64,000 nt of DNA from Escherichia coli. GTDB lineage: Bacteria > Pseudomonadota > Gammaproteobacteria > Enterobacterales > Enterobacteriaceae. The stretch lies in assembly GCA_025544715.1 (NCBI GenBank), contig GCA_025544715.1_4109.2, one strand, 5' to 3'. Numbering within the stretch: the first letter of the stretch is position 1; every line of letters starts with the position of its first letter. Under the pieces are notes generated by a model. It did not search any database and was not told where the DNA came from. It saw only the letters and a program-made list of their open reading frames with translations. Of the stretch, positions 1,793-38,520 are shown one piece after another. The translations under genes and the position numbers were made by a program.

Positions 1793-2014
1793 TCATTCCT
1801 CATCACTTTCAGTTAGCATAATGCTATGTACAGTTTCCACATAGCGGTGTGTTTTGGGTGTGTTATACTTTGTAATTTCATCAAACAATTTAAACAGTGC
1901 ATCTACTTCACTAAGAGCACGAATGAATACATCCATCTTGGTGACTACTCTGGAAAACCCGCGTATGTTATTAAATTCAGAGACGTGTTCATACACAACA
2001 TAGTATCTATTCAT
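1793..2014 (-). CDS. hypothetical protein (73 aa)
   Basis: ORF track; 4-nt overlap with next gene. Confidence 0.35.
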   Translation of the reverse strand: MNRYYVVYEHVSEFNNIRGFSRVVTKMDVFIRALSEVDALFKLFDEITKYNTPKTHRYVETVHSIMLTESDEE

Positions 2015-2529
2015 ATATTAAAAAGTTCCATGAATTCATTGAATAAAGAAGTTCTAATGCACATAACAAATTCAAAATCAACATCTATGGTGTCAAGTAG
2101 TTTGAACAACTTTGGTACTAATGGATCATTCACCTCAAAGTTATGAATCAAACTTTGTTGAAACACATTTTCTTCAGTACTATAATCAATAACAAAATAT
2201 TCAGCAATACCAGGTGGTGTGTAAACATCATATAAAATATGGCGGTGATGATTTGTTTTAGAACTAGGGGAATATATAAGTTCTATTTCATAAGATTTAT
2301 CAGCACTGCGTGCGTAACAAATAATATCAGTACTCGTTATTTCTGAACCATCACTTCTCTCTGAAAAACAAACATCAGCATAGCGTTTTCCAGAGAGATT
2401 CAAAAGGTCATGAGTTGTTTTACCATAACAGAAATCAGTTTCAATGCGTATCACATCTTGATATTCAATTGGTCTTGTATCGCGGCGTTCACGATTAAAC
2501 ACTAATTTCAACAACTCATTAATATCCAT
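2011..2529 (-). CDS. EE-x-FFQ-x-S motif paralogue family protein (172 aa)
   Basis: contains STEENVFQQSLIHNFEV, matching the family motif. Confidence 0.6.
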   Translation of the reverse strand: MDINELLKLVFNRERRDTRPIEYQDVIRIETDFCYGKTTHDLLNLSGKRYADVCFSERSDGSEITSTDIICYARSADKSYEIELIYSPSSKTNHHRHILYDVYTPPGIAEYFVIDYSTEENVFQQSLIHNFEVNDPLVPKLFKLLDTIDVDFEFVMCIRTSLFNEFMELFNI

Positions 2530-2729
2530 TACTTAGTCTCAATAACCTTTAGATTTACAAAGTCACCTTTAACCTTCATACATTTGTATTCAGTGCGAGA
2601 TTCATCACCAGCATCACGAGGCCAATGAGTTGCAGAGTAACACTGATCAGGTGTTTTATATACACCTTCACCAACGGTGCGAGTGATTTCACCATTAGTT
2701 AGTACTACTGCAAGATATAAAGTAAACAT
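2529..2729 (-). CDS. hypothetical protein (66 aa)
   Basis: ORF track. Confidence 0.3.
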   Translation of the reverse strand: MFTLYLAVVLTNGEITRTVGEGVYKTPDQCYSATHWPRDAGDESRTEYKCMKVKGDFVNLKVIETK

Positions 2730-2880
2730 ATTAGTCCTTACAATAATTTATTAATAATAATAGCACCCAAACCAAGTACTGCAATAATTGCAGATACCCA
2801 CATTATCCCGTTCACTGCACCTGTGAGTTCTTTATCAAACTCTCGGCACTTCTTGCGGTAATCTTCCCACTCTTTGTTAT

Positions 2881-3096
2881 TCACACTGCCACTCCTAATA
2901 GGTCGGTAGCTTTCTTGAGTACTACATCAATCGTTTCCAGTACTGCACCTTTGTGTTCGATTGATACAATATTATTATAAGTATCAAGATCCAAGTACTC
3001 CATATATTCAGTTTTGAATACACGAACATCAGTACTAGTGATTTTAATATCACAACCTTTATCCCAAATAACCTGCATCATTTCATTGGTAGTCAT
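2881..3096 (-). CDS. hypothetical protein (71 aa)
   Basis: ORF track. Confidence 0.35.
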   Translation of the reverse strand: MTTNEMMQVIWDKGCDIKITSTDVRVFKTEYMEYLDLDTYNNIVSIEHKGAVLETIDVVLKKATDLLGVAV

Positions 3097-3371
3097 TATT
3101 CAACCTTATCATAAACAAGTTTGTGTGTGCTTAGTACTTTGTTGTGATGTCCAGGGCATTCATATACATACAATCGCTCCTGACGTTTTTCCCAACCACC
3201 ACAGATACGACCTGATTGTGTACATATTTCATACTCGTTAATAAAAGACTTGCCTGTGAATGTACAATCCTGACGAACTAAGTCTTTTGCACTAAACCTG
3301 CCGTCATCATTACATGCTGTAAGAAACATTGTACAGAATACAACAAACACAGTCAATAGTTTTTTAATCAT
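3096..3371 (-). CDS. putative lipoprotein (91 aa)
   Basis: N-terminal signal peptide ending in lipobox-like LTAC. Confidence 0.5.
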   Translation of the reverse strand: MIKKLLTVFVVFCTMFLTACNDDGRFSAKDLVRQDCTFTGKSFINEYEICTQSGRICGGWEKRQERLYVYECPGHHNKVLSTHKLVYDKVE

Positions 3372-3736
3372 TTAAGATCTCCCCAACGGCAACCCTTCAT
3401 ATGATTCAAATTCACCTCAACTATTTCATGTGTGTCAGTGCACAATATCGACAGTTTTTTTGTAAAATCACCTGGTGAACTTTCATATTTCACACAATAG
3501 CCCTCGATACGGAGAACCGAATGGGTCCATGATTCCCACTCAATCCAAATTTCATTTGGGTGATATACAATATCTTCGTTTAGCTTGTGATATTCATCTA
3601 GTGGAAGCTGTGTAGTGATATCAACATATTTTACATTTCGAATGAGTTTTTCAAGCTGATATTTTGCATTAGCAAGATATTCTTCATCATTCAAACGTTC
3701 TAAGATATTTGCTGCACGAGTAGTATCAATACTCAT
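3368..3736 (-). CDS. hypothetical protein (122 aa)
   Basis: ORF track; 4-nt overlap coupling. Confidence 0.45.
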   Translation of the reverse strand: MSIDTTRAANILERLNDEEYLANAKYQLEKLIRNVKYVDITTQLPLDEYHKLNEDIVYHPNEIWIEWESWTHSVLRIEGYCVKYESSPGDFTKKLSILCTDTHEIVEVNLNHMKGCRWGDLK

Positions 3737-3738
3737 TG

Positions 3739-4386: not shown

Positions 4387-4415
4387 ATAATACTGCTATT
4401 ATTCAGTACTGTCAA
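4387..4415 (-). promoter_or_regulatory. sigma70-like promoter (TTGACA-17-TATTAT)
   Basis: read on minus strand; upstream of ORF 3984-4292. Confidence 0.45.
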
Positions 4416-4705
4416 TCGATATAAGTACCTTTTTTAACATCACAGACTTCTTCCATCCAATGTGGATTTTCGTTTTTATCAGTGAAGATTTGTTCTGCTT
4501 CTTCTTTTGTTTCAGCTAGGACAATACGATCCCCTTCATCCAAATCACGGATACGATACACTTTCAGTTCTTGTTTCTTCTCAAGGATATTACACAGTTC
4601 ACGTGCTTTTTCTTCATCGCACTTCCCTTCATTAGCATAAAACCAAATTGCTTTTTTAATAAGGTCACGTTCTTCTTTAGAAAAAGACATAATATTTCCT
4701 ATCAT
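4412..4705 (-). CDS. hypothetical protein (97 aa)
   Basis: ORF track. Confidence 0.45.
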   Translation of the reverse strand: MIGNIMSFSKEERDLIKKAIWFYANEGKCDEEKARELCNILEKKQELKVYRIRDLDEGDRIVLAETKEEAEQIFTDKNENPHWMEEVCDVKKGTYID

Positions 4706-4744
4706 TTGTTAAAGTGGATTTCGTTTGATATAAACATTATACAG

Positions 4745-4772
4745 TACTGATATCTTATGTCAAGTATTAATC
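4745..4772 (-). promoter_or_regulatory. sigma70-like promoter (TTGACA-16-TATAAT)
   Basis: minus-strand reading; CAGTACTG in spacer. Confidence 0.5.
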
Positions 4773-4859
4773 ACCACAAATCATCAGATACCCAAACCAA
4801 CCAACGCAGATGACTAAACTGACAATACCAACGATAGCCTCTAACATCATTTTGTATCC

Positions 4860-5078
4860 TTAATTGATAATTTGATATTCACGATGACCATAGAAGCCAG
4901 CTTCAAGGATGCGATTACCATCAACATCTTCCAAGTCCCAACCACGGGATGTTTCGGCAATAATAGTCATGATGTGTCCTTTGGTAAAGGTTCCACTCAT
5001 AGTGGATACATCTTCAAGTAATTGAACTTTCTTTCCAACATTGGAATTCGGTTTAAACATTTTATGGCCCTTATTCAT
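4860..5078 (-). CDS. hypothetical protein (72 aa)
   Basis: ORF track. Confidence 0.35.
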   Translation of the reverse strand: MNKGHKMFKPNSNVGKKVQLLEDVSTMSGTFTKGHIMTIIAETSRGWDLEDVDGNRILEAGFYGHREYQIIN

Positions 5079-7145: not shown

Positions 7146-8111
7146 TTAGAAATCTTCGTATTCGTACCCTTTTGCAAGTACTAGCTTCTTAAGCTTTTGC
7201 ATAGCTTCACTGTACTTTCGATGTATTGATGAACGGGATTTAACATATTTTCCATTATCATCAACAAAACCATTATCAGCAATCTCACGAAGCGTTTCAG
7301 GTTCATATTCACCTAGACCATGAACACGCTGGATAATCTCACGTTCTTTAGTACTCAATTCGTTAGTCAGTTCATTGATAGCATAACGTAAAGGTGCACG
7401 AATACTATCAACATTGAGGTTAAAATCAGAAGCAGGTGAATGAATAATGTCACCTAGTGTACCATCTGTAACACCGTCTAATGGTGCATCCAGTGAAGTG
7501 TATTCGCTTTGAAATAACAAACAATTATTAACATGCTGAATCTCAATCCCAGTACCCTCTGAGATTATTTCAGGAGTTGGGCGAACACCATGTTTACGCA
7601 TATATTCTTGGCAGAATCTTTTTACTTTGATCTTATGAACACTCATATAACGTGGGAAGTGTACCATATAGTTAGCGTCAGAACTTTCGTTATAAACTGT
7701 CATGTAAATACTAGAAGAAGCATAGGTAATGAACTTCACATTCTTATTAAGATCAAAGGTTTTTAGTGCTCTCATGAACCCCTCAACACCATATGAAATC
7801 TTATCTTCAAATGGGATATAACAAGTACATTTACTTGCTACATCAATAATAAGTCCATAATTGTAACGAACTAACAGTTCAGTGTTTTTCTTTACATTGA
7901 TACCAGCTTGAATATCACGAATTAGATCTTCATTGGTAACATTTTGTGGTCGCTTAAGTGTAATATTATATTTGAAACTGCTTTGTACTTTACCTTCATT
8001 TTCATCTTTATCTTCAACGAAATCTAAGGCTTCTAGTGTGTTGACTTCTTCATTAGCAAAACATTCATCCAGAACTTCTTCGGCAATTGTATTTAAATCA
8101 AGCTTTTTCAC
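7146..8111 (-). CDS. RNA polymerase sigma factor, sigma-70 family (321 aa)
   Basis: region 2-like GFMRALKTFDLNKNVKFITYASSSI and region 4-like LSTKEREIIQRVHGLGEYEPETLREIAD. Confidence 0.6.
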   Translation of the reverse strand: MKKLDLNTIAEEVLDECFANEEVNTLEALDFVEDKDENEGKVQSSFKYNITLKRPQNVTNEDLIRDIQAGINVKKNTELLVRYNYGLIIDVASKCTCYIPFEDKISYGVEGFMRALKTFDLNKNVKFITYASSSIYMTVYNESSDANYMVHFPRYMSVHKIKVKRFCQEYMRKHGVRPTPEIISEGTGIEIQHVNNCLLFQSEYTSLDAPLDGVTDGTLGDIIHSPASDFNLNVDSIRAPLRYAINELTNELSTKEREIIQRVHGLGEYEPETLREIADNGFVDDNGKYVKSRSSIHRKYSEAMQKLKKLVLAKGYEYEDF

Positions 8112-26640: not shown

Positions 26641-26790
26641 TTAATCAGATTTCTTTTCGTAATCTGTAAAAACAGTCAGGATTGTTGCACATAGTGAATC
26701 AACTACTGATGCACGTGTGTTATCAAGGTCTTTAGCTAGTGCTTGAATCTCTTGAAGTTTTACTACTAAGTCGATTTTTTGATTACTCAT
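26641..26790 (-). CDS. possible small ORF (49 aa)
   Basis: hand translation MSNQKIDLVVKLQEIQALAKDLDNTRASVVDS...; below track cutoff. Confidence 0.3.
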   Translation of the reverse strand: MSNQKIDLVVKLQEIQALAKDLDNTRASVVDSLCATILTVFTDYEKKSD

Positions 26791-26812
26791 TACTTCTCCT
26801 ATTGGATGTTTT

Positions 26813-27103: not shown

Positions 27104-27609
27104 TACTCCAACTCCACAACATTACTTTTTTTGGATTTAATCACTGATGGTGGCTCATTAACGCTTGTTTGACCACGAAGTGATTTTTCCAACGCAATGA
27201 TGCGTTTTAAAGTTTTTATTGATGGTCGCTTCTTCGTCAACTCAGCTTTTGCTTCTGAATAATATTTTCTTACATATCCATAGGCATAATATTTTGAACC
27301 AATGAAAATTTCAGCAACTACTGGATTTGAGTATTGTGTATCAATCCCATTCTGTTCTGTCTCTACAGTGTAAAATGAAATATTTGTATCACATGCTGAA
27401 ATTTTAGCCACCAAAAGATTTGCATCGAACTTATCTAAAATTAGAGAAATTGTTTTTTCGGCATCAGCACTATATGGCATAGCAGACATTAAAAGTTGGA
27501 ATGTCTTAAAGTACTTACTTCCACTAATCATGGTATTGAAAATCAATCCAATGGTGATTAATGCAAGTGTACCAATACACACAAACAAAAACCAATATTC
27601 AACACTCAT
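27103..27609 (-). CDS. hypothetical protein with N-terminal TM helix (168 aa)
   Basis: ORF track; hydrophobic N-terminus. Confidence 0.45.
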   Translation of the reverse strand: MSVEYWFLFVCIGTLALITIGLIFNTMISGSKYFKTFQLLMSAMPYSADAEKTISLILDKFDANLLVAKISACDTNISFYTVETEQNGIDTQYSNPVVAEIFIGSKYYAYGYVRKYYSEAKAELTKKRPSIKTLKRIIALEKSLRGQTSVNEPPSVIKSKKSNVVELE

Positions 27610-27674
27610 TTATAAATCCTCTTACTTTATATGATTAAAATGCCCCATCAAAAATGATGAGGCGGTAAGATAAA

Positions 27675-27884
27675 TTACTTACGATTTGCTTTACGCAGTT
27701 CAGATAGTTCTTCTTGAAGACTTTTCTTCCATGCAATCAAGTGAGCAAAACGGATTGGCCTTGCACCAGTACCGTGGAATACTGCTAGAGCTTCTTCTGC
27801 TTGATGAATCTGGAATTGAATGTAGTTCACAGTGCGGTCGAAGTCGGTGATATCTAGTACTTGTGCGTTAGTTTCTTTAGCCAT
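27675..27884 (-). CDS. hypothetical protein (69 aa)
   Basis: ORF track. Confidence 0.35.
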   Translation of the reverse strand: MAKETNAQVLDITDFDRTVNYIQFQIHQAEEALAVFHGTGARPIRFAHLIAWKKSLQEELSELRKANRK

Positions 27885-27999
27885 TTTAATACCCTTTTAT
27901 TTCTTTTTTATGAAAAACCCTCATCATTGAGGAATGGTTTGCATTTTAATATCTGCCGATAACAAACATTATATCACAATATCTGTTCTTGTCCAATTT

Positions 28000-28359
28000 T
28001 TAATTATTAGAAAGAACAATTTTTGAAACTGGTAAATCTGTATTATTTACACGTTGTTCATTATATCCATTCTGTACAAGAATGTCAATAACTTTAGACT
28101 TATCAATTGTAAATGATTCTAACATATCATATCGGTAATAACCAATAGTCTGACTGAACTCATATTTTCCTGGCTGTTGACGACAACACGTATTTGTTTC
28201 AGCCATAATCTTATTGATTAGGTAATATGTTTCAGTACTATCAATATTTGGAATATAGATCTTATCATCAAAATGAATTACTTCATGTTTATTCATAGAG
28301 TGATTCAATCTCCGCTTTAAGAATGGAAATGATCTCTTTCTGAAGGCCAGTAATTTCAC
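28000..28359 (-). CDS. hypothetical protein (119 aa)
   Basis: ORF track. Confidence 0.4.
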   Translation of the reverse strand: MKLLAFRKRSFPFLKRRLNHSMNKHEVIHFDDKIYIPNIDSTETYYLINKIMAETNTCCRQQPGKYEFSQTIGYYRYDMLESFTIDKSKVIDILVQNGYNEQRVNNTDLPVSKIVLSNN

Positions 28360-28558
28360 TGTTCAAAGATGATAGTCGCTTCGATAATGCCATGAATTGC
28401 TTTGCATCTTCTTTAGAACGGTCATTTCGTACTTTATCAGAACTCCAGTTAGCATATGATTGCTCATCTTTCCTGTTAAGGATATCCCAGTCTAAACGTA
28501 CTAGTTTACGTTCTTTCTTCAGTTCGCTTAAGCGAGATTTCATTTCTTCTTTAGTCAT
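28289..28558 (-). CDS. hypothetical protein (89 aa)
   Basis: ORF track; start may be a downstream Met. Confidence 0.4.
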   Translation of the reverse strand: MTKEEMKSRLSELKKERKLVRLDWDILNRKDEQSYANWSSDKVRNDRSKEDAKQFMALSKRLSSLNSEITGLQKEIISILKAEIESLYE

Positions 28559-28848
28559 TAGATTGTTCCTTTCATGAAGTCTGGAATAACGATTACGATA
28601 GGAGGATTATACTCTACATAACCATTTTTTGTCAATAGACTTTTAATATCTGAAATCACATTATCATGCTGTTCAATATCTTTATCACAAAAGATTTCCA
28701 ATTCTTTCTGAAACGGTTTTTTAACCGAGATGTTTTGAGTCAGTGTTTGGATTCTCTGTAACATATCAATTGGATCTGGACTGAACTCATTACCAACATA
28801 AAGAGTACCAGATGCATCTTTTTCTAGCAAGACTTCTAAAATTTTCAT
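28558..28848 (-). CDS. hypothetical protein (96 aa)
   Basis: ORF track. Confidence 0.4.
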   Translation of the reverse strand: MKILEVLLEKDASGTLYVGNEFSPDPIDMLQRIQTLTQNISVKKPFQKELEIFCDKDIEQHDNVISDIKSLLTKNGYVEYNPPIVIVIPDFMKGTI

Positions 28849-29681
28849 TTCTTATCCTTCAATTTACTAAAGTTTTCTCGTGTAAATCCAGGAACTGGAA
28901 AATATACATCACAGTCAACATCAGGATTAATAATTACCATGTCATTACATATTATATCACGAATTTTACTACCGTCCACGATTTTTTGCATTAAATCATT
29001 CCATTTTTTACGAGAAATGACGAATGTACTAATTATACATAAATCATGTCCACGTTTTGAAATATATCCTAATACTTCATTATCGTAAACAACACGTATA
29101 GTAACTTTTCCAATTGTTACCCCTCTTACTGGATTAATACTAGTATCTTCAAAAATTAATTCTAATTTAAGTTTACCATTTGAAATAAGTGATGAAGTAT
29201 ATTTAGAAACCATTTTATCAATTTCTTGAGTCAAATCATCTCTACCTAGATATTCAAATACCGAATAAGTTAATTCGTCTGCACATAACTGTTGGATAGT
29301 TGGAAGCTGGGCAACCATATCTAAAGATACAGGTTCGATATATATTCTTTCAATATCAGACGATTGTACAAATAGACAACCATCAGGTGTCGTATCTCTA
29401 ACAATTTCGGCATAATATGTATAAAGATAAAAAACATTAGACTCTGATGAGTCAGTTTCTACCCAAATCTCAGATTGTTTCATTTCATCTTTATGAAGAA
29501 TTCGTTGAGTAAATCCTATGTAAAAACCAAGATATAAATCATCATCAGTTTCAAACGGATTAAACATCAAATACGGATATTTGTCAAGGTACTCATTGAA
29601 CTTACGCTGCACATCTCTATCACAATCCATGATATACTTTCGGAATTCAGAAATGATTATTTTTTCTAATGACATAATCAA
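28845..29681 (-). CDS. hypothetical protein (278 aa)
   Basis: ORF track. Confidence 0.5.
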   Translation of the reverse strand: MIMSLEKIIISEFRKYIMDCDRDVQRKFNEYLDKYPYLMFNPFETDDDLYLGFYIGFTQRILHKDEMKQSEIWVETDSSESNVFYLYTYYAEIVRDTTPDGCLFVQSSDIERIYIEPVSLDMVAQLPTIQQLCADELTYSVFEYLGRDDLTQEIDKMVSKYTSSLISNGKLKLELIFEDTSINPVRGVTIGKVTIRVVYDNEVLGYISKRGHDLCIISTFVISRKKWNDLMQKIVDGSKIRDIICNDMVIINPDVDCDVYFPVPGFTRENFSKLKDKK

Positions 29682-29875
29682 TCCTCAAGATGCATGTAGT
29701 ACATAAACATCGCCAACCATATAAAAAAGCCGAAACAACGAAGTAAAATATCAATTGTTGGATCTGTCCCACCATTAACTTGGTAAACAATTACTGGGAT
29801 TAAAGCAATAGTAAGAGACACAGCACATAAGATGAATGCAACAAACACCTCAAATATAAACTTAATTGTTTCCAT
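29678..29875 (-). CDS. hypothetical small membrane protein (65 aa)
   Basis: two hydrophobic segments. Confidence 0.35.
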   Translation of the reverse strand: METIKFIFEVFVAFILCAVSLTIALIPVIVYQVNGGTDPTIDILLRCFGFFIWLAMFMYYMHLED

Positions 29876-30434
29876 TATTATCCTTCAGTGTGTAGTGTAG
29901 TACATCTAAAAAGTTATACATTGATTCATTACGCATAACCTTGATTGTTAAATTACGACAACCCAACATACGTTTGAGGCGACGCTTCACCGCAGTTAAA
30001 TCATGTGTACTATTCGTATACAGACCATTAACCTGACCTGGAACAGTTGGCACATGAAGAATGTAATCATAATTCATTAGTAAGCGTTGATTATATTTCT
30101 TTAATGCTTGCTTGTATTCTGAAATATTTTCAAAGAATGTACAATAACGGTCGTAACGATTCATTTTATTCAAAATTGAAATACGAAAAGCGTTACCACT
30201 ATTCCAATCATCTTCAGTTGGGTTTGGGTTGATATGTGCCATGTTAGCTGTACTGTACCCACCACTTGTGAAAACTTCAGAATATCCATTCTCAAAAACA
30301 TACAATGTTGCTTTGTGGCCTCGGAATTCTTTACGGTACTTTGACAGTACTTGAATGTGATTACGCTTGGACTTGTACATCTCGTAACCTTCATAATCTG
30401 AACTGAATTCACAAATTTTATCAACACCAGCCAT
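29862..30434 (-). CDS. hypothetical protein (190 aa)
   Basis: ORF track. Confidence 0.5.
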   Translation of the reverse strand: MAGVDKICEFSSDYEGYEMYKSKRNHIQVLSKYRKEFRGHKATLYVFENGYSEVFTSGGYSTANMAHINPNPTEDDWNSGNAFRISILNKMNRYDRYCTFFENISEYKQALKKYNQRLLMNYDYILHVPTVPGQVNGLYTNSTHDLTAVKRRLKRMLGCRNLTIKVMRNESMYNFLDVLHYTLKDNNGNN

Positions 30435-30491
30435 TTCGTATATCCTCGTTTAATTAATATAGGAGTATTATATATACTCCATTTTCATTTG

Positions 30492-30635
30492 TCAAGCTTT
30501 ATAATACGGAAGACTTTTTACTAAAGATTCAGACGTATTATTTTTTACCCATGTACTACCGTTGTCATTAGATACGTATCCAGTACCATTAATAAATTTA
30601 CGCATAATACCAGTAAAAATGTTAGTGTATACCAT
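30492..30635 (-). CDS. possible small ORF (47 aa)
   Basis: hand translation MVYTNIFTGIMRKF...; start overlaps upstream stop. Confidence 0.25.
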   Translation of the reverse strand: MVYTNIFTGIMRKFINGTGYVSNDNGSTWVKNNTSESLVKSLPYYKA

Positions 30636-30805
30636 TATTCAGAATCCTTCGGTTTAGAATGCAAACCATACTTTTCATCATAACGATCATAGGTAGTGCC
30701 ATTAGTACTGGCTTTGATGCTTTCGGTTCGATTGATTTTTTCAATCTTAACACCACGATAACCAATCTCTTCTTTAAATTGTTCCCATGATTCACGTAGA
30801 CTCAT
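30635..30805 (-). CDS. possible small ORF (~56 aa)
   Basis: hand translation MSLRESWEQFKEEIGYRGVKIEK...; GGGGA-type RBS upstream. Confidence 0.3.
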   Translation of the reverse strand: MSLRESWEQFKEEIGYRGVKIEKINRTESIKASTNGTTYDRYDEKYGLHSKPKDSE

Positions 30806-30822
30806 TTTTAGTCCCCTTTTGT

Positions 30823-30966
30823 TATTTCATACACTCACGTAGGTCAATCTTTTCTACTGACCCACCGAGTACTAGATAGTAAAAATTGGAATCTTTGTTA
30901 GCCATATTCAAAAGATCTGCTTTCTGTTGAAGCGTAAAGCGTGAAGTACTGTTACGTACTGGCATA
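30823..30966 (-). CDS. possible small ORF (47 aa)
   Basis: hand translation MPVRNSTSRFTLQQKADLLNMANK... Confidence 0.25.
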
Positions 30967-30967
30967 G

Positions 30968-31411
30968 TTACTCCTTAAAGTAGATATCACGAATTTGCTT
31001 AATCATCTCTAACTCTTGAAGTCCTATCATACCAAAGTTTTCTTGTACTGTCAACTGTTGGAAGTACATTTCCTCTAAATTATTATAAGGAATATCCACT
31101 AATGATAAAGGAACACTTTCACCACGGTATAGCAGATCTTCAACGAAAAGTTTTAAAATCATGATAGAAAATGAATCTTTTTGGATATGAAATTTGTAAA
31201 ATGTTTGGTTAGTACTGAACATTGTATTTGATGGATTGAAACCCATTTCAACAAATACTGTATCTTTATCATTATGTTTGAAATATGTACATCTTGAATT
31301 CGCAAGAACTTTAGATTTTGGGAAATAAAAATCACCCATCAACTTCTGTCGTTTCCAATCCTCGTATACAACTGGATGCTTAACCTTCTTCAATTGGTGC
31401 AGTACTGTCAT
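30968..31411 (-). CDS. EE-x-FFQ-x-S motif paralogue family protein
   Basis: C-terminal NNLEEMYFQQLTVQENFGMIGLQELEMI. Confidence 0.55.
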   Translation of the reverse strand: MTVLHQLKKVKHPVVYEDWKRQKLMGDFYFPKSKVLANSRCTYFKHNDKDTVFVEMGFNPSNTMFSTNQTFYKFHIQKDSFSIMILKLFVEDLLYRGESVPLSLVDIPYNNLEEMYFQQLTVQENFGMIGLQELEMIKQIRDIYFKE

Positions 31412-31791
31412 AGTTTTTTCCAGTCCAATGAATCGAAATCGATTTGCTCAGGATTATCAACAGCGACAACTCGTGCATTATGAAGAGTTTCAAAGTAGCC
31501 GTTCCACGGTGTTCGTAATGGAACTGTCACATCGCCAACTTTAACCAAGAATGAATATTCTGGTGATATTGGGTCAAACCACTCTTTTTGTTTAGCATTT
31601 TCAACGATAGTTTCGTGTTCTTTAGTATAGCAATTATCTTGCTTCATATAAAACACCCAATGCTCTTTTAGGCACTGTAAAGCAGCAACTGCTTCCTCTT
31701 TAGAAGACCATTGAATATCAATTGTATCAAGAACGTCATAACAATTTTCAGTGTCCCCTGTAGTGTAATGTACTTCAATGCTGTATTTCAT
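31408..31791 (-). CDS. hypothetical protein (127 aa)
   Basis: ORF track; lacks the family motif. Confidence 0.45.
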   Translation of the reverse strand: MKYSIEVHYTTGDTENCYDVLDTIDIQWSSKEEAVAALQCLKEHWVFYMKQDNCYTKEHETIVENAKQKEWFDPISPEYSFLVKVGDVTVPLRTPWNGYFETLHNARVVAVDNPEQIDFDSLDWKKL

Positions 31792-32246
31792 TAATCATCG
31801 CCTTTTAGTAATTTACAAATTTCAATCATATGATAATAACATGTATTCCAAAATTGTCCATTAGTACTTCCAACATCATGCACTGTACTTTGCTGGAACA
31901 CATATTCATCGTTGAACATCATTTTAATATCATCAATGTAAAATTCTGGTTTTGAATCATTATTGTATTCAATACTCGTTTCACCATCTGGATCAAGTGA
32001 AATTGATGATATGTCGTGAATTCCTCTCGGATTTGTTGGATAAATTCTCAACGTAAGAGGATAGAAGTCTGGATCGGTTTCATAAGTATATTCGATTATG
32101 TAATAACCATCACCAGTAATTGATTGATATTTAAATGTAGTTTCAATTGAATTTGAGATGTTAAATCCCAGTTTCTTTATCTCATGTAGATGTGATAATA
32201 TTTTATGTAAAGATCCTAAAACATGAATCAAATTATCAATTTTCAT
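31791..32246 (-). CDS. EE-x-FFQ-x-S motif paralogue family protein
   Basis: C-terminal FNDEYVFQQSTVHDVGS. Confidence 0.55.
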   Translation of the reverse strand: MKIDNLIHVLGSLHKILSHLHEIKKLGFNISNSIETTFKYQSITGDGYYIIEYTYETDPDFYPLTLRIYPTNPRGIHDISSISLDPDGETSIEYNNDSKPEFYIDDIKMMFNDEYVFQQSTVHDVGSTNGQFWNTCYYHMIEICKLLKGDD

Positions 32247-32785
32247 TTACGATCCTTTGAAAAGTTCAGTTTAAAAGTTTTACCAAATTCCATTGTAGCT
32301 TTACCCAGATTGTTAATATTTTCTTTCAACATTTCTTGCATCTTCCTAATACTTTCAATCCAGGTTTCTTCTTCGATACGAAGAATTGGTCGCAATCGTT
32401 CCTGAATATCGTTAAAACGTGTATTGAGTTCAACCAATGATTCATATGTGAAATCTTTCATATCGATAATAGTACTTCTTTGAAAGAATTCTTCTTCAGA
32501 CAAATTACTTAAAATGATTTTATCACGACCAATAGATAATGTCAATTCATCATCTTTATTTTTTTTAATTACAATACTAACAGGTGTTTTTAATGTAATG
32601 CAAATATCATGATTATTAAATGTTTCAGTTTGGTTTGACATTCTGAATTGAAGTTTCCCAGATAAAGCATGTACTGGTGATGGTTGCTTTTTACCAGTAA
32701 TAACATCTTCCCATGAATCGAGAATATTATTAATAATTTTAACATAAGGAATTGGCATATATGCACCTATGAAAAATCCACGCAA
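32243..32785 (-). CDS. EE-x-FFQ-x-S motif paralogue family protein (180 aa)
   Basis: LSEEEFFQRSTIIDMKDF with extended C-terminal tail. Confidence 0.55.
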   Translation of the reverse strand: MRGFFIGAYMPIPYVKIINNILDSWEDVITGKKQPSPVHALSGKLQFRMSNQTETFNNHDICITLKTPVSIVIKKNKDDELTLSIGRDKIILSNLSEEEFFQRSTIIDMKDFTYESLVELNTRFNDIQERLRPILRIEEETWIESIRKMQEMLKENINNLGKATMEFGKTFKLNFSKDRK

Positions 32786-32800
32786 TGCGTGGATTTGTAA

Positions 32801-33331
32801 TTATTCAAGTATAGTAATTTCAATTAAACGAATTTCGATAAACTCGTTTTCAGTTTCCCATGACGTGCCAAATTTCTTTTCAAGTTCAGATTTCACATCA
32901 CTTTTAAATTTTCCCATAGTATTAGGAATAATTTGTTTGGTTAATTTGTCGTAACCACAATAAAACATAGGTTTCTCCCTTCGAGATATTAGCTGAACAA
33001 AATCTTTTGGATATGCAGGTATGTTATGCATCACTTCATGAATACACTCAGTACTTGAATCTTGTACTTTGTAGATTACATTAAGTTTACCTCTGAAATT
33101 TGCGGTCATATCAACAATAGTTCCTTTACCCGATTTAAGTAAAGTTCCATTCTTTGAATGAGAGCAATAAAATACCTCATCACCAATATTAGGATAATAC
33201 AAATTAAATTCTAATTCAGATTTTACAGCCAGCCGTTTGAAACTTTCTGTACGTTTTATATAAGTTTGGTATTTGTTTATGTTCAAAAGAATATCTCTCT
33301 TAGTAAATGTGATATAACTGGCATAGTCCAT
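32801..33331 (-). CDS. hypothetical protein (176 aa)
   Basis: ORF track. Confidence 0.45.
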   Translation of the reverse strand: MDYASYITFTKRDILLNINKYQTYIKRTESFKRLAVKSELEFNLYYPNIGDEVFYCSHSKNGTLLKSGKGTIVDMTANFRGKLNVIYKVQDSSTECIHEVMHNIPAYPKDFVQLISRREKPMFYCGYDKLTKQIIPNTMGKFKSDVKSELEKKFGTSWETENEFIEIRLIEITILE

Positions 33332-34143
33332 CCATTCCCAAGCATTTTGTATGCTTGTGTCTTACTAGACACTTTAAAGAAATCTTCAGGAACACCCTGT
33401 AATTTACAACATTCTACTACACTTAAGTGTCTATAGTCAATATTTCTTTTGCCATTCTCTAATAGATATTGACGATTAATCACTGGATCACGAAACACCA
33501 ATTGTCGTCTGGATTTATTAAAGTACTGGTTACAATCACCACCTTTAAAATAGTTAGCATCTATACAGTACGAAGCGGTTCTGTCAGTGTACCAACCATC
33601 TTCAATAATATCTTGAAGTTTAGGTGCATTGGATAATGCAGGTGGTATAAAAAGCTTATCAGTACTGTACCAGTAATATCTCTGCCTGAAGTGAGGCGTA
33701 TAATGCTGGGAGTTTATCAGTACTGGCGTGATTCCTAAAATACTATTAATGTATTCTTTGAAATCTTCCTTCATTTTGACATTTTCAAACAGAAATTTCA
33801 AGTTAGGATTGAGACTTTTGATATGATCAAAAATTTCAACCATTACTAAAAATAACTGCCCACGTATATCATTTAAACCACCCTGTTTACCTGCAACTGA
33901 CCAGGCTTGGCATGGGAAACCACCCATTAATAAATCTATTTTGTCCCACTCAATATCCCATTCTCTCCACTTAGTTACATCACCCAATTGGATAATATCA
34001 GGAAAGTTAGATTGAGATTCAGCTATTGCGTACTTATCAATTTCGGATGAATAATATTTTTCAACTGGGATACCAGCATCTTGCAATGCCATATATCCCA
34101 CACTCATTCCATTAAAAAGAGAAAGTACTCGGATAGGTTTCAT
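33283..34143 (-). CDS. DNA (cytosine-5)-methyltransferase (286 aa)
   Basis: C5-MTase motifs: LSLFNGMSVG (motif I-like), GGFPCQAWS (PCQ), ENV, HFRQRYYW, MLGNGWTMPV (motif X-like). Confidence 0.75.
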   Translation of the reverse strand: MKPIRVLSLFNGMSVGYMALQDAGIPVEKYYSSEIDKYAIAESQSNFPDIIQLGDVTKWREWDIEWDKIDLLMGGFPCQAWSVAGKQGGLNDIRGQLFLVMVEIFDHIKSLNPNLKFLFENVKMKEDFKEYINSILGITPVLINSQHYTPHFRQRYYWYSTDKLFIPPALSNAPKLQDIIEDGWYTDRTASYCIDANYFKGGDCNQYFNKSRRQLVFRDPVINRQYLLENGKRNIDYRHLSVVECCKLQGVPEDFFKVSSKTQAYKMLGNGWTMPVISHLLREIFF

Positions 34144-34195
34144 ATAAAATCCTTTTTATATTGTTAAGGTACTATAATATATTATAGCATCTTAT

Positions 34196-34486
34196 TTAGA
34201 AATCTTCCAAACTTTTTTCATCACACCATCGTGATGTACAGATGATTGCAGATGCCAGAATTGAAGAACTTGCACGTCCTCCACCGAGTAAGTACTGGCT
34301 AATTACGCCAATCATATTGAACACTTTATCATACTCGGTTAGTTGTTCAAAACCTTTCTTCCAATGCTGATATTCTTCTTCTGTGATATTAAACTCACCA
34401 TCAAGTTCCTTTAAAATCTTTTTAAGCACAGCACTATGTTCACTCATCATCATCTCCATATCGTTCGTCATAAAAATCATCATCAC
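34196..34486 (-). CDS. hypothetical protein (96 aa)
   Basis: ORF track. Confidence 0.4.
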   Translation of the reverse strand: MMMIFMTNDMEMMMSEHSAVLKKILKELDGEFNITEEEYQHWKKGFEQLTEYDKVFNMIGVISQYLLGGGRASSSILASAIICTSRWCDEKSLEDF

Positions 34487-34525
34487 GATCTAATGGTTCT
34501 TTTGGCTTTTCAGACATATATTTCC

Positions 34526-34786
34526 TCACATGGTAAATGTATTATCACCATCCATATCTTCATCAGTTGCTTCAGCTAATGTCTTGATTGTAAGTAATCC
34601 ACGCTTCACGTACAACATGAAGACCTTTTCATAATTACCAAACATAATCTCAGGTGACATGTAATTCTCTGTTACAATGACGATTGGACGGCCCTGTGAA
34701 AGCATACGAAACATAGTACGATATTTGTCAAATGTGCGAAATTCATCCATGTTCATCATGTGGCGTTTACGAACTACTTTAGTCAT
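34526..34786 (-). CDS. hypothetical protein (86 aa)
   Basis: ORF track. Confidence 0.4.
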   Translation of the reverse strand: MTKVVRKRHMMNMDEFRTFDKYRTMFRMLSQGRPIVIVTENYMSPEIMFGNYEKVFMLYVKRGLLTIKTLAEATDEDMDGDNTFTM

Positions 34787-34800
34787 CTTATTACCTTTAG

Positions 34801-35241
34801 TTAATTGAACTCTACTTCTGGATAATGATTATAGAACATCTCACGAACTGCGTCAAGATGTTCTTTAAATTTCTCAATGTCATCGAGTGTTAATATAGTG
34901 TCACATATAGTACTTAACTGAAAGAGTGATTCTTCAGTACTGTTTAACTCCAAATCAAATGTAGATGACGATTCATCTGAGATAATATTACCACATATTT
35001 CAAATGTGTCAATATGAACATCATTCAGTTTATTACCAATATAATCATTATATATGAACACAAAAATGTATGATGATTTTTTAGTATAGGTTTTAACATC
35101 ATATGTTATGTAACATTTAAAGTCAAATGTATCATATTCCAATGATACAATTCCAACATCACGATATTCGTTTGTTTCACTTGTTAAATCCGGTATAGAT
35201 GTAATACCTAATAAATCAAAAAACTTTATTGGATTTAGCAT
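34801..35241 (-). CDS. EE-x-FFQ-x-S motif paralogue family protein
   Basis: C-terminal STEESLFQLSTICDTILTLDDIEKF. Confidence 0.55.
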   Translation of the reverse strand: MLNPIKFFDLLGITSIPDLTSETNEYRDVGIVSLEYDTFDFKCYITYDVKTYTKKSSYIFVFIYNDYIGNKLNDVHIDTFEICGNIISDESSSTFDLELNSTEESLFQLSTICDTILTLDDIEKFKEHLDAVREMFYNHYPEVEFN

Positions 35242-35687
35242 TTGATTACCTTTGGATTTTGTTCGATTATGTCAAATAATGACAAAACCATTTCATTTAT
35301 TTTTTCAAAACTTAAGACTATATAACTTAAATCTTTATAATCATAATTAAAATTTTGAATAAGTGATTCCTGGAAATATCCTTCTTCTGTTATGCATGTA
35401 CTTGCATTATATATAGTTGTACAAGTCACATCAGTATAAGTTGAAATAATTTCAATAATGTCAGATATAGTATTGTATATTAACATAACTGTTGTTGTTC
35501 TGATAAGTGGGTTGTAAAAGGATAACTCAGTACGGTCATAGGTCTTTTCAATATGAACTATACATGAATGTGAATAAGAACTACTAATATGTATATACTC
35601 TTTAGGTGATACTACACTTTTGGTATCGAAATTACAAGATAATGCAATTTCAAAATGTTTTTTTATTTCGTCAACATTCATCCTCAC
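35235..35687 (-). CDS. EE-x-FFQ-x-S motif paralogue family protein
   Basis: C-terminal ITEEGYFQESLIQNF. Confidence 0.55.
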   Translation of the reverse strand: MRMNVDEIKKHFEIALSCNFDTKSVVSPKEYIHISSSYSHSCIVHIEKTYDRTELSFYNPLIRTTTVMLIYNTISDIIEIISTYTDVTCTTIYNASTCITEEGYFQESLIQNFNYDYKDLSYIVLSFEKINEMVLSLFDIIEQNPKVIKC

Positions 35688-36055
35688 TCACCATTAATTT
35701 TTATATTTGTATAGTCTAATGCTTTTTTAACAATATCGATTTCTGTAATTCCTATTACATTTTTCTCAATCACTGACAATTGGAATAGTTCCTCTTCGGA
35801 AATATCAATACTGTGGATTCTTGTACAATAATCGTTGAAGTCATATACATATCGTATTGTATAGTCGTTTATAGAAACTGATACAATTGCAATCCCATCA
35901 TGGATATAAGTTAGTTCATTTGAGTATCTATTAAAAATTAACCTATCTGGTGAACCTAATGGTAGTTGAAATGTATTTCTAGTATCTTGAACAATAACAA
36001 AATCATCATCTATATTTTTACTCAGAACACCCAAAATATCATATATAGTAGTCAT
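35684..36055 (-). CDS. EE-x-FFQ-x-S motif paralogue family protein
   Basis: C-terminal ISEEELFQLSVIEKNVIGITEIDIV. Confidence 0.55.
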   Translation of the reverse strand: MTTIYDILGVLSKNIDDDFVIVQDTRNTFQLPLGSPDRLIFNRYSNELTYIHDGIAIVSVSINDYTIRYVYDFNDYCTRIHSIDISEEELFQLSVIEKNVIGITEIDIVKKALDYTNIKINGE

Positions 36056-36056
36056 G

Positions 36057-36461
36057 TTATTCTTTACCTTCAGCAGTTCTGATAATTTTCATAACTTCTC
36101 TGGATAGTGCATATACTTTTTTATAGTGCTCATACGTTACTGAACCAACATTATTAATAGTACTTTCCATGAAGAAAGTTTCTTCTGTATACAGTTCATT
36201 TGACAATGCAACCAGTTCTTGGTGAAATTTTGAGTCCTTCCAATAACGAAATTCAAAAACAAATTGTCCGTCATGTCCGACTCTACAACATTCAGAACGA
36301 TCACTGTCTACACAGCTAATAACAATATCACTTTCTGAATCATACCAGATATTTCCCATATTTGTTTCAATAACAGCATAATCAATTTTTGTAGAATTGG
36401 GAATTAAACCTTTTTTCACCAGCACTAAACTGGTATTGTCAATATCTAGTAAACTTACCAT
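36057..36461 (-). CDS. EE-x-FFQ-x-S motif paralogue family protein
   Basis: C-terminal YTEETFFMESTINNVGSVTYEHY. Confidence 0.55.
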   Translation of the reverse strand: MVSLLDIDNTSLVLVKKGLIPNSTKIDYAVIETNMGNIWYDSESDIVISCVDSDRSECCRVGHDGQFVFEFRYWKDSKFHQELVALSNELYTEETFFMESTINNVGSVTYEHYKKVYALSREVMKIIRTAEGKE

Positions 36462-36462
36462 A

Positions 36463-36873
36463 TCAATTCCTCATTACTAAAGTGTTTTTAATCTCTAACA
36501 ATTTACTATAAATCTTCTTGAATTGTAATATATCTTCAAAAGTAATACCACCAAGATCATCAACTAATGAACGTTGGAATAAAGATTCACTTGTTTGTAA
36601 TGTATCTAAATCGGTGATTTTTAATAAAGAACTTGGATTAAGTGTTTCGACTAGTAGTATGTTTTTGTATGGTACATATGTAATCTTGATGTTCTTTTTA
36701 TAATTAATCTTATAAAATCGCATAATTGACGATTCATCACTTAGTTGGATAATTGGGTCGTCTTGTTCATTAGACCACCATACAGTACTAGTCATATGAT
36801 TGACGTGGTGGTTCAATTCTGATATGTTCAAATCTAAAAAATATTTTATTTCATTGTGTAAATCTAAACTCAT
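36463..36873 (-). CDS. EE-x-FFQ-x-S motif paralogue family protein
   Basis: C-terminal QTSESLFQRSLVDDLGGITFEDILQF. Confidence 0.55.
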   Translation of the reverse strand: MSLDLHNEIKYFLDLNISELNHHVNHMTSTVWWSNEQDDPIIQLSDESSIMRFYKINYKKNIKITYVPYKNILLVETLNPSSLLKITDLDTLQTSESLFQRSLVDDLGGITFEDILQFKKIYSKLLEIKNTLVMRN

Positions 36874-36928
36874 AAATTTATCCTCAATGCAGCATCATCA
36901 TGTATTGTAGGATAAACCCACAATAATG

Positions 36929-37393
36929 TCAAGATGTAAAATAATTATACCAGTAATATAGTTCTTTTAATTCTTCAGTACTGAATAATACTTCTTCTAT
37001 TGTAGATTGTTGAAAGTGATATTCATCATTAAGATACATAGAAATATTACTATATACTTTCCTATTGTATTGACATAAAAAAGAAGTTTTTTTATTAATG
37101 TATTCAGTAAATGTTAATTTATCTAACTCAATATCGAAAGATAATCTAATAATATTAATATTATCATTTACATACATTAGTTTCTTTGAAAAATGATCAA
37201 TTGTAATATATTCTTTGTGAGAGAACTGAAATATATTATTAAATTTTTTACCATTTGTGCTTCTAAATTTTTCAAGGTAATAAGAAAGTGGTTTAATTAT
37301 TGAAGTTCCAATATTATTTTTCATATATACTCGAATTTTAGATAATAAAAATGCCCCGAAGATCGGGGCAGTACTAAAATGATTTTGTACCAA
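36929..37393 (-). CDS. EE-x-FFQ-x-S motif paralogue family protein
   Basis: C-terminal LNDEYHFQQSTIEEVLFSTEELKEL. Confidence 0.55.
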   Translation of the reverse strand: MVQNHFSTAPIFGAFLLSKIRVYMKNNIGTSIIKPLSYYLEKFRSTNGKKFNNIFQFSHKEYITIDHFSKKLMYVNDNINIIRLSFDIELDKLTFTEYINKKTSFLCQYNRKVYSNISMYLNDEYHFQQSTIEEVLFSTEELKELYYWYNYFTS

Positions 37394-37486
37394 AAGGGGA
37401 ATAAGAACAAAATGAAAATATAATAACGCATCATTATTATGTAAAGGGAGGAAAGTAACATGATATGTTAACCATTTCTGGTATAT

Positions 37487-38038
37487 TTATTTATCATTTA
37501 ATTCTTTAAGTTGGGTTTGTATATCTTTAGTTATATTGCGAATTTTCTTAAAGCAATAAACACTATCATCCAATTCGATTTTAAGTTCATGTGTAAATGC
37601 ATACAGAAGTTCAGCAAATACTAAATCTTGTCGCATCCAGTTTCCATCTTTATATAAAGTCATTACACAATATGGGCATTCACTATTAGAAGTTTGCTTT
37701 CCAATAAAAACACTTTGAATTGATTCATGCTTAAAGCCAATAAAACTTTCATTTATTTTTTTAATTTCAGTACTGATATCGAATTTAGCACTGGTGTTGA
37801 TTGCAAAAATTTTATTCCCACTTTCATCAGTATTGATATTGAGTTCAATATCACTACCTAGTTTACGTACTGCTAGAGTATAAAGAAGTAATTCATACAT
37901 GTCGTAACTTGTTACATTACCATTTGGTGCAATTACATCAACACTAACACCGTGCATTTTTACTTCTGTATTAAATCCATCTTTATCAGAAAGAAAATCA
38001 GTGATTTGCTTTGTAAGGATTTTAATTTGGTCTATCAT
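37487..38038 (-). CDS. hypothetical protein (183 aa)
   Basis: ORF track. Confidence 0.45.
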   Translation of the reverse strand: MIDQIKILTKQITDFLSDKDGFNTEVKMHGVSVDVIAPNGNVTSYDMYELLLYTLAVRKLGSDIELNINTDESGNKIFAINTSAKFDISTEIKKINESFIGFKHESIQSVFIGKQTSNSECPYCVMTLYKDGNWMRQDLVFAELLYAFTHELKIELDDSVYCFKKIRNITKDIQTQLKELNDK

Positions 38039-38091
38039 ATTTCATTTCCTTATGTGATAAAAGCCTCCATTATGGAGGCTTTTGTATTTAC

Positions 38092-38520
38092 TTAGAGAGA
38101 TTCTTCGTATTCAGCAACAATCCCAACCATTTCATTAATGAACTTGATGTGAGAATGTGTCACTGTACGGAAGTCGTAAACAAGTGACTGTTGGAAAAAT
38201 ACATCTTCATCAAGAGAACCATCAAAGTTCAAATCAATGTTTTCATCGTCATTGCTTGGTGCAACTTTAATATTCAGAAGATTTTCATCAACTGCAAGTT
38301 TTACAACACAACCCAGTGCAATGGCAAGAACATATGCTGGTTTCTTAGCTTTTTCATTACGGAATGGTGCACGTAGAGCACAAAAAGTACTGCTAATCTC
38401 ATCATTTGGTTCTTTGTATTTAACATTGACCATTAGTTCTTCGATTTTGACGCTCTCAATAACACGACCAGTTTCTGGAGCGAAGAAAGAATGTTCACGG
38501 ATAGTTTGTTCGATATTCAT
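38092..38520 (-). CDS. EE-x-FFQ-x-S motif paralogue family protein
   Basis: C-terminal SLDEDVFFQQSLVYDFRTVTHSHIKFI. Confidence 0.55.
   Translation of the reverse strand: MNIEQTIREHSFFAPETGRVIESVKIEELMVNVKYKEPNDEISSTFCALRAPFRNEKAKKPAYVLAIALGCVVKLAVDENLLNIKVAPSNDDENIDLNFDGSLDEDVFFQQSLVYDFRTVTHSHIKFINEMVGIVAEYEESL

Follow-up and report, generated by a model that had tools for sequence, protein, structure and literature searches.

The window analysed here is a 64,000-nucleotide stretch of DNA from an Escherichia coli assembly (GCA_025544715.1, contig GCA_025544715.1_4109.2), and its subject is a family of small proteins encoded on the minus strand between positions 2011 and 38520. A preliminary description of the window had reported at least 20 minus-strand paralogues of about 115-180 amino acids (aa), with dissimilar N-terminal regions and a common motif near the C-terminus. 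This was borne out by 21 members of 117-182 aa, all on the minus strand, and the five peptides quoted there as examples were all present in the open reading frames (ORFs) at the places given. The conserved part is a module of about 30 residues, which in short form reads [T/S]-E-E-x-[YFL]-F-[Q/M]-x-S-[T/L]-[V/I]-x-D-(turn)-T-[YLF]-E-[DE]. An ORF was assigned to the family when its module scored above approximately 30 bits, the protein had 105-220 aa, and the gene lay in a Rak2-like jumbo phage; 21 window ORFs qualified.

Bases 30000-40000 of the window were 95-97.5% identical, over 96% of the length, to the Escherichia phages CRJP21, 121Q, G17, Sharanji, phAPEC6, and PBECO4. Judged by this match, the window is assigned to Asteriusvirus, that is, to a 121Q/PBECO4-like E. 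coli jumbo phage of about 350 kb in the Rak2-like group. The family ORFs are recorded as 'hypothetical protein' in the relatives' records of the region. Two further genomes were compared: Turkey3 (about 85% nucleotide identity) and RaK2, a Klebsiella phage of another genus. The members are listed below with their scores against a hidden Markov model (HMM) of the C-terminal module and their motifs.

2011-2529, minus strand: member of 172 aa, 39.0 bits, motif YSTEENVFQQSLIHNF; an outlying copy, 14 kb away from the others; orthologues phAPEC6 gp054c and 121Q gp181.
16631-17086, minus strand: member of 151 aa as the longest ORF (136 aa in relatives), 43.6 bits, motif YDTEEEHFMDSTVKE, in which Met replaces Gln; RaK2 orthologue R182240 (reciprocal-best, collinear, E 2e-15).
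17034-17462, minus strand: member of 142 aa, 46.0 bits, motif DSELFFQLSTVYDLQGLTVEQL; among the four copies linked by BLASTP (E<1e-4).
17452-17880, minus strand: member of 142 aa from a GTG start (139 aa in relatives), 48.2 bits, motif LTEEMYLQLNFVHDL; sigma-70-like promoter at 17920-17949 just upstream; Turkey3 orthologue with only 45% aa identity.
18590-18955, minus strand: member of 121 aa, 47.3 bits, motif YTEESLFQYSMINDIGGLTLDEV; high-confidence structural model.
18948-19379, minus strand: member of 143 aa, 46.6 bits, motif NTEEKFFQYCLLNDLRGLTFDDI; the most acidic copy, with an isoelectric point (pI) of 4.05 and a net charge of -20.
22020-22391, minus strand: member of 123 aa, 43.0 bits, motif SADEEDEFQKRTVYE; just upstream, in the sense of transcription, of three tRNA genes.
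22779-23132, minus strand: member of 117 aa, 46.9 bits, motif KTEEEYFQMSTVQE; sigma-70-like promoter at 23164-23191, about 30 nt upstream.
25036-25440, minus strand: member of 134 aa, 33.8 bits (the lowest), motif YSVEEEFQYNLLYPD, one residue shorter; the 21st member.
25437-25985, minus strand: member of 182 aa as the longest ORF (162 aa in relatives), 41.7 bits, motif ARTEEERFMLSTINP; basic (pI 9.4), with a Lys/Arg/Glu-rich C-terminal extension of 30 residues; RaK2 orthologue R174979 (E 4e-18).
26194-26586, minus strand: member of 130 aa, 36.0 bits, motif ADSEEDEFQKNTTLS.
30968-31411, minus strand: member of 147 aa, 37.1 bits, motif NNLEEMYFQQLTVQE; RaK2 orthologue R168692 (E 1e-11).
31791-32246, minus strand: member of 151 aa, 38.4 bits, motif MFNDEYVFQQSTVHD; RaK2 orthologue R167825.
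32243-32785, minus strand: member of 180 aa from a TTG start (171 aa in relatives), 47.2 bits, motif NLSEEEFFQRSTIID; helical-looking C-terminal extension of 45 residues.
34801-35241, minus strand: member of 146 aa, 45.1 bits, motif NSTEESLFQLSTICD; ends overlap or abut the neighbours; lowest-coordinate, and so last transcribed, of six adjacent copies (34801-37393).
35235-35687, minus strand: member of 150 aa, 42.3 bits, motif CITEEGYFQESLIQN; the second modelled member.
35684-36055, minus strand: member of 123 aa, 37.3 bits, motif DISEEELFQLSVIEK.
36057-36461, minus strand: member of 134 aa, 52.2 bits (the best), motif LYTEETFFMESTINN; RaK2 orthologue R163799 (E 5e-14).
36463-36873, minus strand: member of 136 aa, 41.8 bits, motif LQTSESLFQRSLVDD; RaK2 orthologue R163375 (E 1e-14); sigma-70-like promoter at 36904-36932 just upstream.
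36929-37393, minus strand: member of 154 aa from a TTG start, 36.5 bits, motif YLNDEYHFQQSTIEE; translation probably begins at the ATG at 37324 instead, giving 131 aa as in relatives (G17), because a terminator-like hairpin lies at 37352-37370.
38092-38520, minus strand: member of 142 aa, 46.1 bits, motif SLDEDVFFQQSLVYD; the copy best kept across genera (RaK2 ORF184 orthologue, 47% identity over 145 aa, E 4e-46).

The motif was significant against a composition-matched background. A loose regular expression found it in 20 minus-strand proteins, in addition to one clearly unrelated plus-strand ORF, whereas in 1000 rounds of shuffling the residues of the 95 minus-strand ORFs with at least 80 aa, on average 0.85 proteins, and never more than 5, carried it. 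The strict form of the motif was observed five times and never in the shuffles. When the six frames of the 64 kb were scanned with the HMM, the 21 ORFs scored 33.8-52.2 bits and the next ORF 11 bits, and no member was detected in 38.6-64 kb. Because the model was built from the members, it is this gap in scores that counts as evidence, and not the E-values. The ORF at 1796-2017 was rejected as a member, with only an 11-bit match and no motif. The module starts at residues 81-120, a narrow range. In 19 of the 21 members, the motif begins 35-57 residues before the C-terminus; in the other two, this distance is 72 and 87 residues. The common C-terminal motif of the preliminary description therefore stands, and its distance from the end, given there as 25-35 residues, is somewhat larger.

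Outside the window, the module is carried by 121Q gp197 (190 aa, LNDEEYFQESIV…) and gp256 (223 aa, LQEEELFMYSTV…), located at 4402-4974 and 36812-37483 within positions 96000-145999 of 121Q. The N-terminal extension of gp197 is very basic. These two are divergent, longer additional members. The window thus holds 21 copies; an Asteriusvirus genome has at least 23, and RaK2 has 14 or more.

The consensus was derived from 154 sequences, comprising the window copies and database relatives, and the 109-sequence non-redundant subset of an alignment (A2) agrees with it. With percentages after the residues, its first part reads x-[T64/S21]-E90-E94-x-[Y/F/L]-F96-[Q83/M16]-x-S83-[T/L]-[V/I]-x-[D/E/N]-hydrophobic-G-x, and it continues as [L/I/F]-[T/S]-[Y/L/F]-[E/D]-[D/E]-hydrophobic-x-x-[I/L]-x-x-[I/L]. 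The Glu-Glu pair is kept in 90-94% of sequences, and substitutes such as Asp or Gln are almost absent. For the conserved Ser, eight members have the codon AGT and seven have TCA/TCT, Phe and Gln each use both codons, and the mean nucleotide identity of the 48-nt core is only 49%. This mixed codon usage indicates selection on the protein and not on the DNA, and a recombination signal was ruled out as a DNA-level explanation.

The consensus core ltEEeyFQq is strikingly near the tobacco etch virus (TEV) protease site ENLYFQ, and proteolytic processing was considered. Cleavage would be of the 3C/TEV type at E-E-x-Y-F-Q, or by a T4-type prohead protease at L-T-E, and would free a C-terminal peptide of about 4 kDa. 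The preliminary description had already discounted a TEV/3C site, and the present data side with it. The column equivalent to P1 holds Gln in 82-83% of sequences and Met in 16-17%, P1' is Q/L/Y/E/M/R instead of Gly or Ser, and the conserved Ser stands at P2'. Conservation runs at least 10 residues past the would-be scissile bond. In place of an extended conformation, the two structural models described below predict helices here (87-96 and 101-110), the first at high confidence. No 3C-like protease is annotated in those stretches of the relatives' genomes that were covered, which amount to less than the whole genome and received no systematic scan, and the members are absent from the reported virion proteins. 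Processing is accordingly regarded as very improbable.

Sequence databases did not offer a name for the family, and the preliminary description had likewise recognised none. No Pfam-A family, SUKH included, was above cut-offs in the 16 window members scanned, and NCBIfam gave no match to the family. In PHROGs the 21 proteins are spread over 29 families, all of unknown function, so that the family is divided there among at least 25 unannotated groups. The best hit of a profile search against PDB sequences had an E-value of 0.18 and came only from a chance 'TEENYFQ' string. A word-indexed protein search returned mostly close orthologues, and BLASTP among the copies linked only 4 of 21 at E<1e-4. 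The family is unmentioned in the literature on 121Q, PBECO4, RaK2, CBB, phAPEC6, Sharanji, and jumbo phages generally; it was probably missed by the genome papers because BLASTP links so few of the copies.

The distribution of the module was defined by profile and pattern searches. Among 1.84 billion representative proteins, an exhaustive profile search gave 112 matches at E<=0.001, all of them proteins of 62-217 aa with the module. Most of the ten representatives that were traced belong to metagenomic or run assemblies. Several of the ten lie on 170-360-kb contigs, and no informative name is attached to any of them. With tblastn, matches among phage records occurred only in jumbo phages of Escherichia, Salmonella, Klebsiella, Cronobacter, Pectobacterium, and Erwinia. 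When 2.9 million IMG/VR contigs were screened with a strict form of a degenerate DNA pattern, nine loci were hit. They are spread over six contigs, of which five measure 345-378 kb and the sixth 109 kb, and individual loci hold up to about nine tandem members. Arrays occur in RaK2 and CBB as well as in the 345-378-kb metagenomic contigs. As far as these matches go, the family is found only in Rak2-like jumbo phages. It is ancient and previously undescribed.

The N-terminal parts are dissimilar, as first reported. No significant BLASTP similarity was found between the N-terminal parts of the window paralogues, and hhalign comparison of N-terminal-only profiles of orthologue groups gave the same result as a reversed-sequence control. 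Two adjacent pairs were exceptions, at 76% (18948-19379 with 18590-18955) and 26% probability. In the A2 alignment, alternating hydrophobic columns run through the N-terminal part, together with a conserved aromatic residue.

Structure prediction by AlphaFold2 was most successful for the member at 18590-18955. From a 144-sequence alignment, this model reached a predicted local distance difference test (pLDDT) score of 90.9 and a predicted template modelling (pTM) score of 0.84. It comprises a helix at 4-15, strands at 26-29, 44-51, 54-61, 64-68, and 76-79, and helices at 87-96 and 104-114. The motif T86-E-E-S-L-F-Q-Y-S-M-I96 forms the first C-terminal helix, over which the pLDDT means of 10-residue blocks are 89-93, and D98-I-G-G-L-T103 forms the turn. 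The model of the member at 35235-35687 scored lower (pLDDT 67, pTM 0.58), with a helix at 5-10, seven strands, and helices at 101-110 and 117-143. The order of elements is alike in both models, namely an N-terminal helix, a sheet of 5-7 strands, and two C-terminal helices. What the preliminary description called an amphipathic-looking tail corresponds in the model to the second, amphipathic C-terminal helix. The narrow range of module starts, the equal element order, and the alternating hydrophobic columns together support a single diverged fold, and a fold shared across the paralogues is probable on these predictions. Foldseek found nothing below E 0.1 in the PDB, and in BFVD only the family's own clade was matched at E<=0.001, with a borderline Yersinia phage protein at E 0.013. 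The predicted fold would thus be one without a solved relative.

On a helical wheel, three variable motif positions fall at i, i+4, and i+8. These variable positions share one face, so the motif helix looks mostly buried, and the interchange of Gln and Met fits a core position. The Glu-Glu pair would be exposed at the N-terminus of the helix. The motif helix is thus likely to be a core part of a compact alpha+beta domain and not a detachable signal.

These models bear on the idea, which follows the common docking, packaging or degradation signal of the preliminary description, that unrelated bodies share a C-terminal module docking to one machine, such as a host protease, a secretion or packaging system, or a phage partner. 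The proteins would then act as a family of adaptors. The module stays while the N-terminal parts are unrecognisable between paralogues, and the Glu-Glu pair is invariant, as this idea would expect. However, the module is predicted inside a folded domain with pLDDT of about 90 rather than as a flexible tail, and its core is the first of two C-terminal helices. The narrow range of N-terminal lengths and the common order of elements in both models also speak against unrelated bodies. For a packaging signal, the virion data are contrary: no orthologue was among the 62 virion proteins of phAPEC6 identified by mass spectrometry (PMC7247149, Table 1), although small proteins can escape such detection, and none of the RaK2 members is annotated as a virion structural protein. 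A shared degradation signal is not supported either, since bacterial degrons are usually at the extreme C-terminus and the motif is not. Docking of unrelated bodies through the module is therefore considered doubtful.

Five conserved polar residues lie within 12 positions of the module, and they might instead form a small metal-binding or catalytic site (E-E...Q..S...D), which would make the proteins enzymes or ion-dependent switches. Paired helix Glu residues bind Mg2+ in some enzyme families, e.g., Nudix. Against such a site, no Pfam, NCBIfam, PDB sequence, or fold match was obtained, Met replaces Gln in 16-17% of sequences, and no conserved residue elsewhere would complete an active site. 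We regard this possibility as distinctly remote.

The orthologues were used to examine how the family evolves. In Turkey3, 20 members have reciprocal orthologues with 45-97% protein identity; phage CMSTMSU, also at 85% identity, was dropped from the calculation of nonsynonymous to synonymous substitution rates (dN/dS) in favour of Turkey3, since its record is unverified and its genes fragmented. Against Turkey3, the family had a pooled dN/dS of 0.27, with values of 0.30 in the N-terminal part and 0.21 in the module, compared to 0.09 for 53 other genes. Median protein identity was 76% for members and 88% for other genes (P=0.04). By these values, the genes are real and under constraint, and they change faster than those around them. 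Over window positions 14000-40000, the synonymous divergence of neighbouring orthologues ranged from 0.05 to more than 2 and protein identity from 45 to 100%, which indicates, in the comparison with Turkey3, a recombination mosaic and not uniform divergence. RaK2 contains at least 14 members in a syntenic region. Reciprocal-best partners there were found for 11 window members, eight of them clearly significant (E 4e-46 to 2e-7) and collinear. The array is therefore older than the split of the genera, and individual paralogues have been kept since.

The same data can also be read with the motif kept only as folding core and helix cap and with paralogue activities that are unrelated and not necessarily binding. 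F, Q/M, S, T/L, and V/I behave like core residues, the swap of Gln and Met is typical of buried sites, T-E-E is a favourable helix N-terminus, and within the genus the module is barely more constrained than the rest (0.21 versus 0.30). However, a Glu-Glu pair kept in 90-94% of otherwise dissimilar sequences exceeds the usual demand of helix capping, and the 109 sequences of A2 hold no conserved basic residue elsewhere in the domain to pair with it. The near-invariant pair is the single feature for which structure by itself does not account. A pure scaffold role is a possible, though unlikely, explanation of the family.

The surroundings of the genes are consistent with early expression. The family DNA sums to 9.1 kb, a quarter of the 36.5-kb early-looking block at 2011-38520, which also holds six tRNA genes, a Dcm methylase, and an RpoD-like sigma factor. 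Six members are adjacent (34801-37393), and others form pairs or triplets with overlapping or abutting gene ends. Near-consensus sigma-70-type promoters, matching at least 11 of 12 hexamer positions, were searched in window positions 1-64000. On the coding (minus) strand 31 were found, 10 of them perfect and mainly within 400-39000, compared to two on the opposite strand and 2.9 ± 1.9 in dinucleotide shuffles; some lie 30-40 nt upstream of members, as listed above. In the related phage PA5oct, which relies on host RNA polymerase, the comparable run of small uncharacterised genes is expressed early (PMC7318152). The block is therefore presumably driven by host RNA polymerase and early. Early expression of the family is suggested by the promoters, the block content, and the comparison with PA5oct, and the setting fits early accessory or effector proteins.

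Acidity is a further common property, with a pI below 5 in 16 of the 21 members and in 26% of other ORFs. Acidic DNA-mimic anti-restriction proteins (Ocr, ArdA) were tried as a candidate and rejected, because 5 of 21 members are neutral or basic and no structural match to a solved mimic was found.

Our tentative interpretation, to which we give slightly less than an even chance, is that the family consists of early, mostly acidic cytoplasmic proteins that bind stoichiometrically to different targets of the host or of competitors, for takeover or anti-defence. Each protein would be one compact alpha+beta domain on a common scaffold. Its first C-terminal helix would carry the N-cap Thr/Ser, the near-invariant Glu-Glu, and F-Q/M-x-S-T/L-V/I, followed by the turn D-hydrophobic-G-x-hydrophobic-T and the start of the second, amphipathic helix. 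After old duplications, the sheet and the N-terminal helix would have diverged beyond recognition, and every paralogue would then have been retained as its own orthologue line under purifying selection. Separately retained lines imply that the copies are not redundant, and, given the long individual retention, each paralogue probably acts on a target of its own. Specificity would lie in the variable part, and the exposed Glu-Glu pair where the helix begins would either make a contact common to the paralogues or only cap the helix. The weakest step is the binding itself, as inhibitors, decoys, or adaptors acting early in the cytoplasm.

Several observations weigh against this interpretation. 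Binding partner, expression timing, and phenotype all rest on inference. The shared fold leans on one confident and one mediocre model and on an alignment that may itself impose the hydrophobic pattern, while N-terminal profiles behaved like reversed sequences, and a left-out N-terminus ranked at a median of about 51st of 461 in a leave-one-out HMM test, a weak enrichment. Burial of the helix and exposure of the Glu-Glu pair come from helical-wheel reasoning and not from model coordinates. Five neutral or basic members show that acidity is not universal, and long orthologue retention is less typical of anti-defence genes in an arms race, which often turn over fast.

A variant, improbable in our estimate, combines both ideas: the helix pair with its Glu-Glu would dock to one host or phage machine, and the variable sheet would capture different targets. 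If true, the phage would encode approximately 20 early adaptors or targeted inhibitors through which numerous host proteins meet a common fate. Such a set would be the counterpart, in a virus of bacteria, of the poxvirus ANK-PRANC or BTB adaptors, on a fold without a solved relative.

The family accounts for 21-23 genes of a phage of about 350 kb that infects laboratory E. coli, and it is conserved in Rak2-like jumbo phages of at least six host genera. One HMM would annotate hundreds of ORFs now called 'hypothetical', and recognition as a family yields a predicted fold without a solved relative and a mutational target, the Glu-Glu pair. The family may also serve as a probe panel for the host processes that giant phages which do not form a nucleus must control.

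Other features of the window were annotated as follows.

7146-8111, minus strand: RpoD-like sigma factor gene (321 aa), so annotated in G17, phAPEC6, and RaK2.
12908-14062, plus strand: orthologue of phAPEC6 gp077.
14104-14916, minus strand: orthologue of phAPEC6 gp078c.
21114-21653, minus strand: HNH-type endonuclease of 179 aa (…HHIDPSQKDF…CANCHREIH), adjoining the tRNA-Asn gene.
21718-21988, 23714-23884, and 24588-24660, minus strand: six tRNA genes (Asn-GTT, Met-CAT, Ser-GCT, Arg-TCT, Ser-TGA, and Gly-TCC).
23205-23369, 23366-23530, 23527-23691, 24163-24345, and 24688-24864, minus strand: ORFs of a second small paralogue family.
33283-34143, minus strand: Dcm-type cytosine methyltransferase gene.

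The phage sigma factor would presumably redirect host RNA polymerase once the early phase ends. phAPEC6 gp077 and gp078c were both found in virions by mass spectrometry, and their window orthologues fall within the otherwise early-looking block. The gene at 12908-14062 is the sole sizeable plus-strand gene there, and a perfect sigma-70-like match lies on the opposite strand at its start. ARAGORN gave lengths of 79-90 nt for the first three tRNAs. In G17 no gene occupies the HNH spot, and Turkey3 has an HNH homing endonuclease elsewhere in its tRNA cluster; the gene at 21114-21653 looks like a mobile homing endonuclease. The second paralogue family (23205-24864) consists of five BLASTP-linked ORFs of 54-60 aa among the tRNA genes. 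The methyltransferase DNA is 67-82% identical to methylase genes of many unrelated phages, among them Escherichia phages of about 146 kb and phages of Campylobacter, Vibrio, Pseudoalteromonas, and Proteus, which suggests horizontal spread. Outside the window, positions 96000-145999 of 121Q include 17 consecutive ORFs (gp249-gp265, at 35359-39195), all but one of 59-75 aa, and 15 minus-strand genes (gp234-gp248, at 21090-35256), 13 of which are annotated as RCC1-like 'DNA condensation' proteins. Both are further paralogue arrays of the same genome.

Jumbo phages are already known for paralogue expansions of small early genes, and the family is of this familiar type, although it is itself undescribed. 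Nearly 10% of RaK2 products are paralogues (PMC3622015), and Bacillus phage G has a zinc-ribbon family of about 35 copies (PMC7824862). These expansions are alike in the many tandem copies of a small domain in a giant phage, with a suspected role in host conflict or regulation. Unlike them, the TEE-FQ-S family was not described in those reports, lacks a recognisable domain, and is divergent to the point that BLASTP links only 4 of the 21 copies. The run of small uncharacterised genes gp34-gp105 in PA5oct is likewise early and served by host RNA polymerase (PMC7318152), but early expression was measured there and is deduced from promoters here. The family was not found in PA5oct, as no Pseudomonas phage was among the phage-record matches. 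In fold, the order of a helix, an antiparallel sheet, and two helices in both models resembles MAM33/p32/gC1qBP (PDB 1p32, 3qv0, 3jv1), although no significant structural superposition was obtained.

Variable bodies combined with a conserved short module are also known elsewhere. T4 internal proteins have variable bodies and an N-terminal capsid-targeting sequence, which is cleaved and leads into the virion, and poxvirus ANK-PRANC adaptors have variable bodies with a common signal. Both match this general picture. Unlike the T4 signal, the module here is C-terminal and has a predicted structural role, and no member is among the reported virion proteins. Zhang, Iyer and Aravind reportedly described in 2011 'polyimmunity' loci, which are tandem arrays of diversified small alpha+beta immunity proteins, e.g., SUKH/SMI1-KNR4. 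The present family differs from such arrays in that it has no Pfam SUKH match and no adjoining toxin genes, is phage-encoded, and keeps its orthologues across genera. It resembles them in its divergent small alpha+beta proteins encoded in tandem, whose fold would be kept while their surfaces vary, and the polyimmunity arrays thus provide a model for paralogue-specific binding.

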